A DNA stretch of 64,000 nucleotides from Oligoflexales bacterium (GCA_965215515.1 OZ244057.1:1856001-1920000), one strand, 5' to 3'; positions 59,798 through 63,415 are shown, numbered from the stretch's first letter. Notes: generated by a model from the letters alone, not told the origin. Made by a program: numbers and translations.

Positions 59798-62700
59798 TTA
59801 CTGCTTAAAATAAAGAAGTGGAGCAACGTCGCAGCAGGCGTCGTTCGATGCGCCGCATGCCGTTCCCTCGTGTTCTAGGCATTCATCAGACATGTATACT
59901 TGGTCAAGTTCGGTCTTGATATCTGTTACGAAAGTCCTAACACTCTTATCATCTGCTGCTGTATTCAGCAAACTGTTCCCAATCCTATCGAAACACGCAC
60001 ATTCGTCTCCTTCTGTCAGTGCAGCACCTAGATTAGATCCGAGACATCTAATTCCATTTTTTGCGTTTATTATCATATCTGCTCTTGGGCATTTCTGATT
60101 GCCAGTGCAATTTGATATTCCATCACCCTCACCACCCTCACCACCATTCACACGAGCTTTGTAATAGGCGTCGACGATACAGCCTTTGTAGAGCCGTGTT
60201 ACGGACGGTGGTGGGAGAGTCGGCGCTGTGCAGGTGCAGGTGTGACCGTAGGGAGGTGGCGGCGGTGGTACTGCTGTCTGAGGCGAAAATGTGTGATTAG
60301 GCCCCTGACCACCACAGTGTGTTTTTGCAGATGTGAGCAGAATTTGGTACCCGCTGCCGTCTCCTAATGGCTTTGTGCCGCCGTCTAAGGTATATGTTGT
60401 GCACGTTTCCAGACAGTAGCAAGTGCGAATACTGCCCGCGGTGGTAGAACGGAAAATGCCACCTGCTCCCTCACAGCTACTCTCCGCATCACCGACAGTA
60501 CTGCCCACCCCATAATCCTGATCACAGACATCTGTTGGTGGAGGTATAGTAGCCGATGGGTACGTGCAGGTGCAAGCGCGTTTTAGTGTTTTGTTATCAG
60601 TCATGTATTGAGTAGTTCCATTAAATGTGTTCTTTTCATCACCACTTACATTGCTGTCTGACGTAGTGCCTTTACATACTGCATACGCAGCATCAACAGT
60701 CATGGGCAGATGCTGCCCGTGACTAACAGTATTTCCGTTCTCGTCCGTTACCCTAAGGCTGGCACATTGTGCTGCGCAGGTACATGCAGCGCCCGTCGAT
60801 GAGAAGTAACCCCCTCTAGTACTTTCACAGTGACTCGTTACCTCCGCAACTTCAGTATTTTTGGCGGGAACATCGCCTCCACTATAATCAGCTGGGTAGC
60901 TAACGCTATCACAGACAGGATCAGGCGGTGTCTCTGGCGGTGTCGGTGTCGGTGTCTCTGGCGGTGTCGGTGTCTCTGGCAGTGTCTCTGGCAGTGTCTC
61001 TGGAGGTAGAGAGCCGCTGTATTTGCAACTCCCCGTACACGTATCAGTGTCGAAACTCCAGCTCATACTAGCCCCGCTGCAGGTGCAGCCGCCACTGCCC
61101 CAAGCGCCGCTAGCTTTGGTGCATGCAGTTTTCTCAGCATCGGAAAGACACACGCACTCGCCTGTAGAACCAACCCCGAACACAGACAGCGCCTTGTTGA
61201 GCAGGCTGAGTGAAGTAAGAGCAGAGAAGTTCCATACCTTCTTGGGATCAGAGCAAGTGCACTTGCACCTATTATCGTTCCAGGTTGCCTCACTCACGTT
61301 GCCGCATGCGTTTTTCTCATTACCAGTACTATCAGGGCACTGACACATACAAGTATTCGGATTGTATACTCTGTTCACGTATGTCGTCCCATCGCTGCTG
61401 TTGCAATTGCAGCCACTACCATATGTAGCCCTTTCCTGACAGCTGCCGCCCGTCGTCCCATCCAAACAGGCACTCTCACACTCTCCCACTTGCACCGCCT
61501 GCCCTCCCGAGCATTCTTCTTCAGTTTCAGTAATGGGTTCTGTTGGCTGTTCTGGTGTCTCAGGATCAGGGTCTTCTGCCTCCTTGCAGCAGCCAGCACC
61601 TGAGGAATTGGTTGCCTCACCCGTCCACGTGCCACCGAGGAGTGTGCAGGCAGATTTCTCTATAGCCGCTACCACTCTGAGCGGCGTGGCAGGGTCGCTA
61701 TCATGATCCCAGCAACACTGCGTTACTATGTTGCATTCAGTTTCTGTTGGCTCACAACCAGTACATCCCTTAGTTTCGGTAGCAAGGCACTCACTAATAA
61801 CCCCCACGCCTTCAGAGCAAGGATCGGCACTACTGACACCAGCACAGGGATCACTGCAGGTTCTGCTGCGCATTTCGTAGCAGTACATAGGATCACTCGA
61901 ATCTGTTACAAAAGCATTTCTTGCACAGGCACTCCATTCACCCCAGTCCCGACAATTGGCAGCACAATTGACTGGTTTCTCGCCGCAGACAACTCGGCTA
62001 AATTCAGTATGCTCATCGGGACAACTGAAGCCATCTTGACAGCCATTTGGGTTATTTGGATGTGGTTCCCAATCTGCAGTAGCATTCCCTGTTTGCGTTA
62101 CCTCCTTACAGGTGTAATCTTCACTGAGAGGATTCCAAGTTATCTCGGCACTCATCACCTTGCACACACAAATACATTCAGTCCTGGTGTCACCTTCTCT
62201 GCACGGACATTCGGTGGTAGTGCACTCAGCGATAGGCTTTAATCCTTCTTTAGTGCGGATAATGATGGTTTCTGTCTCTTCTGGGCATGTTGTTCCTGGT
62301 GGGAGAGTACCAATAGGTGTGCAAGTGATAGTGGTAGTTTTTGTCTCCGTGTAATTTTTGCATGCACATACGTCTGCTGGCTTTTCTGCTGCTATCCATC
62401 CCCCTTCACTACTCACGCAATCACACCGCCATGGTGGTGTTGGTGGCGTTGGCGTTGGCGTTGGCGTTGGCGTTGGCGTTGGCGTTGGTGTTATGCAAAC
62501 CTTCGTCCCTATAACTGTTACCCGCCTATTTCGTGCCTCTCTTGGACAGGGAGGCCATCCTCTACAGGTTCTCGTCTGTGGTTCATATTCATATCTCGAT
62601 TCGCCCTCACAGGCGTTGGGATCTGTCCTACTATCACTCACCGCAGGCTGCCAAGGAGTACATCCGCATCTCCTACAGCAGCCCTTATTAGGGGCACTAT

Positions 62701-63415
62701 CATTGAACGTCCCCCACCACCCGTTGCAGGTTAAGCTAAATGTATTAGCCACCTCGGTATTACCATCACAGCACTGTGTTGTCGGATCACATGGTGGCGG
62801 AGGCGGTGGTGTTGGTGTTGGCGGCGGCGGCGGCGGTGGTGCCCCTAAGCCTGCGGGGCAGTACTTGGTGATGTTGCGGCAGACCGTGGGCTTGGCATCG
62901 CGCAACGCCATCCTCACCGCATCACCCCGCGTATAGTCACACTCCTCGCTCCCCCCGCCATGACAATCGGGATAAATATACCTGCCCTCAGCATCGGCAT
63001 AGGCAAAGGCAACCGCAACATTACCAGGACGCAACTGATAAAAATAACGTAACTGTCCACAGGCTTGCGGACGGAAACCCAAACGGTTATTCAACCCCTG
63101 ATCGCGATCATCGGCGTAGTCCCCACAATCACCCCTAGTACCGTCCTCATTCTTGTAGCCGATACCACCATCAGGGGCGAGCAACGCGGAGCCACTATAG
63201 TAATTACCGTGCTCGACTTTATACATATCTTGTAAGGTGGCCAGGTGGGCGAGATTGCTCTTCGCCTCCCCCCGCCGTGCCTGCGCCAAGAAAGCATGAT
63301 AACGCGGCACTGCCAAGGCGACCAAAATGCCGATAATCGCCACCGCGACCATCAACTCCACCAAACTTAAACCCGCCTTCGTCCGCACCACTTCCCTTTT
63401 TTTGGCTAAAAACAA
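59798..63415 (-). CDS. Giant type IV pilin-like Cys-rich protein, copy 3 (1205 aa)
   Basis: RTKAG|LSLVELMVAVAIIG; contains blocks shared with copy 1 and with copy 2. Confidence 0.85.
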   Translation of the reverse strand: MFLAKKREVVRTKAGLSLVELMVAVAIIGILVALAVPRYHAFLAQARRGEAKSNLAHLATLQDMYKVEHGNYYSGSALLAPDGGIGYKNEDGTRGDCGDYADDRDQGLNNRLGFRPQACGQLRYFYQLRPGNVAVAFAYADAEGRYIYPDCHGGGSEECDYTRGDAVRMALRDAKPTVCRNITKYCPAGLGAPPPPPPPTPTPPPPPPCDPTTQCCDGNTEVANTFSLTCNGWWGTFNDSAPNKGCCRRCGCTPWQPAVSDSRTDPNACEGESRYEYEPQTRTCRGWPPCPREARNRRVTVIGTKVCITPTPTPTPTPTPTPTPPTPPWRCDCVSSEGGWIAAEKPADVCACKNYTETKTTTITCTPIGTLPPGTTCPEETETIIIRTKEGLKPIAECTTTECPCREGDTRTECICVCKVMSAEITWNPLSEDYTCKEVTQTGNATADWEPHPNNPNGCQDGFSCPDEHTEFSRVVCGEKPVNCAANCRDWGEWSACARNAFVTDSSDPMYCYEMRSRTCSDPCAGVSSADPCSEGVGVISECLATETKGCTGCEPTETECNIVTQCCWDHDSDPATPLRVVAAIEKSACTLLGGTWTGEATNSSGAGCCKEAEDPDPETPEQPTEPITETEEECSGGQAVQVGECESACLDGTTGGSCQERATYGSGCNCNSSDGTTYVNRVYNPNTCMCQCPDSTGNEKNACGNVSEATWNDNRCKCTCSDPKKVWNFSALTSLSLLNKALSVFGVGSTGECVCLSDAEKTACTKASGAWGSGGCTCSGASMSWSFDTDTCTGSCKYSGSLPPETLPETLPETPTPPETPTPTPPETPPDPVCDSVSYPADYSGGDVPAKNTEVAEVTSHCESTRGGYFSSTGAACTCAAQCASLRVTDENGNTVSHGQHLPMTVDAAYAVCKGTTSDSNVSGDEKNTFNGTTQYMTDNKTLKRACTCTYPSATIPPPTDVCDQDYGVGSTVGDAESSCEGAGGIFRSTTAGSIRTCYCLETCTTYTLDGGTKPLGDGSGYQILLTSAKTHCGGQGPNHTFSPQTAVPPPPPPYGHTCTCTAPTLPPPSVTRLYKGCIVDAYYKARVNGGEGGEGDGISNCTGNQKCPRADMIINAKNGIRCLGSNLGAALTEGDECACFDRIGNSLLNTAADDKSVRTFVTDIKTELDQVYMSDECLEHEGTACGASNDACCDVAPLLYFKQ

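Follow-up and report, generated by a model that had tools for sequence, protein, structure and literature searches.

The DNA analysed here, called the window throughout, is a 64,000-nucleotide stretch of an Oligoflexales bacterium (GCA_965215515.1, OZ244057.1:1856001-1920000) carrying three giant genes, copies 1 to 3, which are modular type IV pilins on the features tested: signal peptide, pilin fold and linker-joined module. They belong to a family of dispersed cassettes whose tails are in-frame patchworks of shared blocks. Ordinary RecA-type recombination among complete copies probably made these tails, which type IV pili probably carry as varied binding tips. The source genome is a single contig of 2.18 Mb in which the window lies. 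A genome-wide count of paralogues, proposed in a preliminary description of the window, gave 13 long pilin-headed genes, 12 with near-identical heads and one divergent (E1343), scattered rather than clustered. Twelve of the 13 are intact, with mature products of 575-1190 aa and a cysteine content of 8-10%. Each of the 13 is followed by a gene for a zinc-peptidase lipoprotein, forming a two-gene cassette. The window cassettes and the parts of copy 3 are listed below.

59798..63388, minus strand: copy 3, a giant modular type IV pilin gene; product of 1190 aa with 96 Cys when mature, behind a 6-aa leader from a probable GTG start at 63388; frame open to 63415
63416..63869, minus strand: 454 nt upstream of copy 3, 99% identical to the C417 upstream region; A-tract of 8-11 bases varying between copies
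62846..63388, minus strand: copy 3 pilin head, predicted T4a pilin fold; near-identical in 12 copies, itself recombinant
62789..62842, minus strand: Pro/Thr linker 1, length-variable; six different post-head modules of 12 copies begin behind it
62495..62788, minus strand: module block 1, common to copy 1, B240, C417, D1041 and G1569; second half a predicted three-stranded rod
62429..62494, minus strand: Pro/Thr linker 2, tandem 6-nt repeat DNA
61802..62445, minus strand: module block 2, 98.4% identical to copy 1 and M1947, about 99% to D1041; weak TSP1-like leads
61585..61801, minus strand: block near-identical to D1041 only
61526..61570, minus strand: Pro/Glu/Thr linker 3
60987..61554, minus strand: module block common to copy 2 (94.1%), C417, D1041 and partly H1601
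60917..61006, minus strand: Pro/Glu/Thr linker 4, length-variable
60151..60750, minus strand: segment with no near-identical paralogue
59801..60196, minus strand: C-terminal domain type Z1, also in copy 1, D1041, M1947, A99 and L022 (sister species); predicted helical, low confidence
58696..59784, minus strand: lipoprotein gene downstream of copy 3, beginning 13 nt past the pilin stop; zinc peptidase with HExxH, ankyrin repeats and a conserved tail
5250..8495, minus strand: copy 1 giant pilin gene, 1075 aa mature, 86 Cys
4019..5233, minus strand: copy 1 peptidase-ankyrin lipoprotein gene
15414..18341, minus strand: copy 2 giant pilin gene, 969 aa mature, 86 Cys; C-terminal type Z2
14223..15401, minus strand: copy 2 peptidase-ankyrin lipoprotein gene

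The mosaic is seen when copy 3 is set against the other window copies. The stretch at about 61830-62870 had been described as near-identical to about 6890-7980 of copy 1 and absent from copy 2. The first half of this holds: in a self-comparison of the window, 61790-63584 matches 6849-8690 of copy 1 at 94.4% identity, and the tail block 61802-62445, which is not in copy 2, matches 6861-7504 at 98.4%. The second half does not hold for 62800-62870, since copy 2 shares the head to about 62800. The converse pattern, near-identity to copy 2 and absence from copy 1 over about 60903-61554, was recovered, with 60987-61554 aligning to 16297-16870 at 94.1%; a further stretch missing from copy 1, 60883-60940, aligns to 16259-16316 of copy 2 at 89.7%. 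Blocks of this kind, hundreds of bases at 94-100% identity beside unrelated sequence (E-value 0.0), are far beyond chance. Uniform similarity along the genes, named in the preliminary description as one finding that would speak against a mosaic, was not observed; similarity is plainly non-uniform.

Painting all 13 genes with 16-mers places these blocks in differing subsets of copies, and profiles built within the family cover seven module types that recur. The paralogue closest to copy 3 changes along the cassette: C417 over the 454 nt upstream and the head (99-100%), D1041 in the middle (95-100%), none at 60151-60750, D1041 or M1947 in the C-terminal domain, E1343 or H1601 over the peptidase gene and copy 2 in the 3′ flank. 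The diverged N.YCC modules reported for copies 1 and 2 are present there and also in two other paralogues. Shared tracts run past the gene borders, by 264-455 nt upstream in four pairs and, between copies 2 and 3, by 128 nt beyond the peptidase stop. M1947 is without one copy-1 module and is joined there at an 8-nt microhomology. Many joins carry 36-111 nt of unique sequence. None of the 86 shared blocks tested, in a set without H1601 and E1343, breaks the reading frame, and the cysteine count is even in 24 of 26 family proteins, distant ones included; together these point to selection for intact, disulfide-paired products.

The ends of copies 1 and 3 are of a different age. A C-terminal domain common to these two copies only had been proposed; the domains are homologous, but they share just 39% protein identity, and the type recurs in D1041, M1947, A99 and L022. 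The copy 3 domain is far closer to D1041 and M1947, outside the window (76-77%), and both main C-terminal types are present in sister species. The sharing between copies 1 and 3 is therefore old and not a recent swap. A downstream junction common to the two can likewise be aligned (59696-59853 with 5145-5299), but only at 77.6% identity. The module and C-terminal types predate the species and are found elsewhere in other combinations, P0012 for example combining block 2 with a Z2-like end.

The head in front of these tails is a pilin. The start of copy 3 is probably the GTG at 63388, 27 nt inside the frame as listed, to judge from the class III cleavage site and from the paralogue B240, in which the upstream TTG is out of frame. 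All three window copies score above the N_methyl cut-off and have a class III signal peptide, with a short leader ending in Gly, Glu5 and a hydrophobic helix. In a profile search the head's PDB matches were pilins, Myxococcus PilA being best by sequence (E 1e-13). A model of head residues 1-172 placed PilV (Z 6.3, root-mean-square deviation 3.2, 89 aligned residues) and Myxococcus PilA (Z 6.1, 3.1, 115 aligned) as the top two by fold, which supports a T4a pilin fold with moderate confidence. The large extra module is joined to this head by a linker.

The head is itself part of the exchange. Module exchange by recombination or conversion behind a constant pilin head had been suggested; the exchange is supported by the mosaic and by tests on the heads, whereas the head is only near-constant, with 92.3-99.8% identity among 12 copies and 42 informative sites. 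Among pairs of these sites, 284 of 861 are incompatible, a PHI-like permutation test gives p=0.0002 and at least 8 crossovers are required. In a tree that leaves out the frameshifted copy H1601, a single clade (98/99) takes in 11 of this genome's 12 intact heads. The A99 head falls in this one-genome clade though its tail aligns end to end with that of L022 from a sister species (36%), and so the head was replaced or homogenised.

Block ends had been placed near Pro/Thr/Glu linkers. Such linkers are indeed favoured, modestly, about 2-3 fold, but the significance varies with the counting and at least two thirds of ends lie inside Cys-rich modules. Ends within 3 residues were counted as at a linker. 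A first count, in which clustering over-merged sites, gave 5 of 21 clusters (p=0.07); a recount gave 10/32 and 12/32 sites under two linker definitions, with nulls of 11% and 14% (p=0.002 and 0.001); after merging of left and right ends, the figures were 4 of 18-20 (p=0.13-0.17) and 6 of 18-20 (p=0.03-0.05). This merging is conservative (linker 1 alone leads into six modules), and the sites are non-independent either way. Ends away from linkers are not clearly closer to Cys than chance (6-7 of 12-16, null 0.38-0.39). The varying linker length was borne out, the first linker measuring 12-28 aa across 11 copies. Linker DNA is a tandem repeat, and different linkers of one gene share exact runs of 4-25 nt; pairs of Pro/Thr-rich linkers often share runs of at least 10 nt (control mean 5.6). 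M1947 has lost the block between linkers 1 and 2, its first linker being a fusion of the two, plus another block at a linker microhomology.

Short-read contigs bear on the joins. Seven runs contain the stretch and six were examined, all as contigs; X1-X4 may come from the assembly's own study. The copy-3-specific segment 60028-60804 was found in X1, X2 and X4, and 61525-61857 in X2, with no mismatch; X5, from another study, contains 61610-61890. X2 also contains copy 1 6561-6807 and the M1947 deletion joint, where 8 letters fit both sides, in agreement with the microhomology in the assembly. Three partial matches in X6 were considered as new combinations and rejected: all three stop at a GATC/GANTC site (8% of positions have such a site within 5 nt), and these apparent joins are likely ligation chimeras. 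The depth of copy 1 contigs below that of copy 3 in X2 is not readable as a share of cells.

A mechanism can be sketched from these features. Exchange would start in long homology (the head, shared modules or the peptidase tail) and end at short homologies, which may include the Pro/Thr linker repeats as one kind and Cys-motif repeats as another. Slippage would alter linker length, and selection would remove joins that break the frame or the disulfide pairing. Type IV pili would then probably display the resulting giant pilins as binding tips of varied kinds. PilB/PilT-family ATPases, a prepilin peptidase and RecA are all encoded in the genome. Upstream of the pilin start (window ~63443-63453, and at the matching position of every cassette) lies an A-tract whose length varies from 8 to 11 bases among the 14 places examined; it could tune expression by slippage or could be sequencing noise. 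A sigma-70 scan gave nothing above shuffles. Loss of mismatch repair as a driver was rejected: each of the three genomes searched in the genus has MutS and MutL.

The tails have few relatives. No Pfam domain was found in the tail, and the disulfide-rich C-terminal domains have neither a Pfam nor an Atlas match. The model of mature residues 1-540 of copy 3 includes a three-stranded rod at residues ~237-290 (predicted local distance difference test score, pLDDT, 61-76), whose resemblances fall below threshold (SasG Z 3.7, G5 Z 3.6, properdin E 0.13). Atlas places TSP1 clusters at 0.77-0.83 for the next block, also below threshold, and the TSP1 and G5 resemblances are leads. A search of the tail against 1.84 billion representatives returned 8 matches, seven of them pilin-headed members of this family and one a headless 271-aa protein with similar modules. 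A head search of 30 relatives included two genomes of the same genus, with four and two such long pilin genes, all followed by a peptidase gene. Four further genomes of the same order (G030, G021, G023 and G006) have 10-38 pilin-like matches each, mostly short.

Several observations temper the proposal of recombining, pilus-displayed tails. Within shared blocks the ratio of nonsynonymous to synonymous polymorphism (pN/pS) is 0.62 in tails and 0.30 in heads, with no sign of positive or diversifying selection. The tail folds are low-confidence, with mean pLDDT 51 for residues 1-540 and 47 for the C-terminal domain. In the two sister genomes no near-identical block is common to any of the six cassettes, and these give no sign of recent exchange; within the three genomes examined, the burst of exchange is therefore a peculiarity of this lineage. 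The enrichment at linkers is not robust to the way of counting, with p from 0.001 to 0.17. Read contigs extend only about 30 letters into the shared blocks, at or under the bridging rule, and so speak for local adjacency and not for whole-gene phase. Finally, 123 kb in 110 near-identical regions, 5.6% of the genome, is repeated and other families behave alike; homogenisation in so repeat-rich a genome therefore need not be adaptive. The main rival takes up this last point: a repeat-rich, shrinking genome would have amplified one cassette and scrambled it by generic recombination, so that the mosaic is real and its variety has no selected role. It remains the main rival because pN/pS, below 1, gives no diversifying selection; one frameshifted copy, four remnants and the insertion sequence (IS) fragments that flank window copies also fit it. 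The intact state of the other 12 genes, the unbroken frame and the kept Cys parity are harder to reconcile with it, as are module and C-terminal types older than the species and recombined elsewhere (P0012), and we regard it as unlikely, though it deserves to be taken seriously.

Programmed variation of the pilE/pilS type, in which one expressed locus is rewritten at high rate from silent donors, would account for a constant head with a variable tail, for patchy conversion, for the variable A-tract and the C10 tract of copy 2, and for two headless fragments. The analogy to antigenic variation drawn in the preliminary description nevertheless fails on the testable defining features of pilE/pilS, the donor bank and the G-quadruplex (G4). 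The genome holds no silent-cassette bank, 12 of 13 genes being complete with just two headless fragments, and the 12 copies with near-identical heads keep the same conserved upstream region. No shared G4 motif was found: one of 13 upstream regions has one, 571 nt away, and copy 3 has none. The nearest recombinase match lies about 24 kb from a cassette, and the 94% complete genome has no RVT_1 match; such a programmed system is accordingly improbable here. On the same grounds shufflon or invertase-driven variation (dispersed cassettes, no adjacent site-specific recombinase) and a diversity-generating retroelement (no RVT_1 match) were rejected. Still less probable is a reading on the pattern of polymorphic toxin cassettes, with the C-terminal domain delivered as an effector and the lipoprotein acting as its cognate immunity or processing partner. 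The lipoprotein gene behind every pilin, within 20 nt in 11 of 13, the several C-terminal types and the ankyrin repeats would suit such a pairing, but the C-terminal domains are disulfide-rich and without Pfam or Atlas match, and the peptidase tree does not track the C-terminal type (3 changes, a number no lower than that in 236 and 217 of 500 shuffles). That the mosaics are assembler chimeras is the most improbable reading. Long near-identical repeats invite such errors, and the best runs may be the assembly's own sample; yet copy-specific segments occur without mismatch in contigs of three runs, the copy-1 form and the M1947 deletion form are both present in contigs, joins are in frame with even Cys counts and often carry unique sequence, and the heads differ by patchy substitutions.

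The downstream lipoproteins carry the HExxH motif, and the three in the window have ankyrin repeats. Those behind F1491 and G1569 (L037, L038) are longer, with different C-termini (527 and 545 aa) replacing the usual tail. A peptidase-like tail also occurs on two unrelated exported-looking proteins (G000 659691-660644 and 986628-987557), which suggests that they have a C-terminal sorting signal in common. Joint action of the peptidase and its pilin is among the least supported proposals.

Damaged copies record other events. The genome has two head remnants and two headless fragments. In remnant L041 (G000 964971) the first 50 pilin codons adjoin the peptidase tail, as after deletion of a whole cassette; the headless open reading frame L035 (G000 1041556-1042509), directly upstream of D1041, joins a diverged copy-1-like tail module to a peptidase fragment. 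H1601, the one pilin gene that is not intact, owes its frameshift to two single-base homopolymer gains; the C10 tract of copy 2 (window ~17530-17539) is a frameshifting C11 in H1601, and its head has an 18-nt in-frame deletion between 9-nt repeats.

Elsewhere in the window, a partial CRISPR (clustered regularly interspaced short palindromic repeats) locus at 56003-58464, presumably type I-E-like, comprises a cas6e fragment, cas1 and cas2, with two repeats at 57689-57779 and one spacer; right behind the copy 3 cassette it is truncated by an integrase fragment that we take to be IS3-like. The stretch between copies 1 and 2, 8697-13595, is of low GC and contains IS fragments, a toxin-antitoxin-type pair that is Gp49-like and a fusion of a DNA methylase with an Mrr-like domain. 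At 50303-53767 two genes for family 5 solute-binding proteins lie in tandem, with 65% DNA identity.

Published systems are compared here from the parts of each source drawn upon. Modular type IV pilins such as S. sanguinis PilB/PilC and CofB of enterotoxigenic Escherichia coli consist of a pilin with a large additional module, for which display at the tip and an adhesive role have been proposed (PMC8179133), and the giant pilins share with them the class III signal peptide and the pilin domain joined by a linker to its module. The most extreme of the multi-domain cases named there has 860 residues, in contrast to the up to 1190 aa, 8-10% Cys and Pfam-less tail found here, and those parts describe no recombining paralogue family like these 13 module-swapping genes. 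Neisseria pilE/pilS likewise diversifies a pilin with a conserved N-terminus by patchy recombination of paralogous sequences, but up to 18 pilS donors there feed one pilE in a G4-dependent manner (PMC11813099), whereas in this family whole domains pass between dispersed genes that are complete, and there is neither a donor bank nor a shared G4. By analogy, the closest known mechanism, nearer than pilE/pilS (PMC11813099), would be conversion among Helicobacter pylori babA/babB/babC, dispersed full-length adhesin paralogues made chimeric within the genome and subject to repeat-tract phase variation (PMC4552749). The bab genes are, however, three outer-membrane proteins at three loci, compared with 13 pilin cassettes, multi-module shuffling and a coupled peptidase gene. 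Bdellovibrio, a relative from the same broad lineage, has 21 mosaic adhesins, the MAT fibres, with one end conserved and one diversified; these are trimeric and phage-fibre-like, not pilins, and no recent exchange of near-identical blocks appears in the parts drawn upon (PMC10769870). Myxobacterial PilY1 paralogues are Cys-rich too, but few, and the main text does not mention recombination (PMC13190605). No description of such a family was found in the literature searched, which excluded supplements; Dataset S1 of PMC8179133 may list related architectures. An adhesive role for the tails is inferred by analogy with modular pilins (PMC8179133) and MAT fibres (PMC10769870), and binding to a host or prey surface is among the least supported parts of the proposal. 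The ecology of Oligoflexales is described as unresolved (PMC10701089).

Modular pilins have been described as a pilin with a grafted domain; in this genome the grafting seems to be in progress, as recent in-frame swaps among a dozen complete genes. Plasmodium var genes offer a parallel, being many complete genes whose Cys-rich domains are reshuffled by ectopic recombination; they are, however, eukaryotic, unrelated in sequence and expressed in a mutually exclusive manner. A var-type family on pili is a tentative and rather doubtful extension: complete pilin genes would recombine continually in populations with linker repeats as joints, A-tracts would set which copies are on, and cells carrying different tip adhesins and linked peptidases would recognise changing hosts or prey. 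The family also amounts to a natural library, in which about seven disulfide-rich modules, all uncharacterised, recur on one pilin carrier. It may give a testable handle on how an uncultured Oligoflexales bacterium recognises what it lives on.

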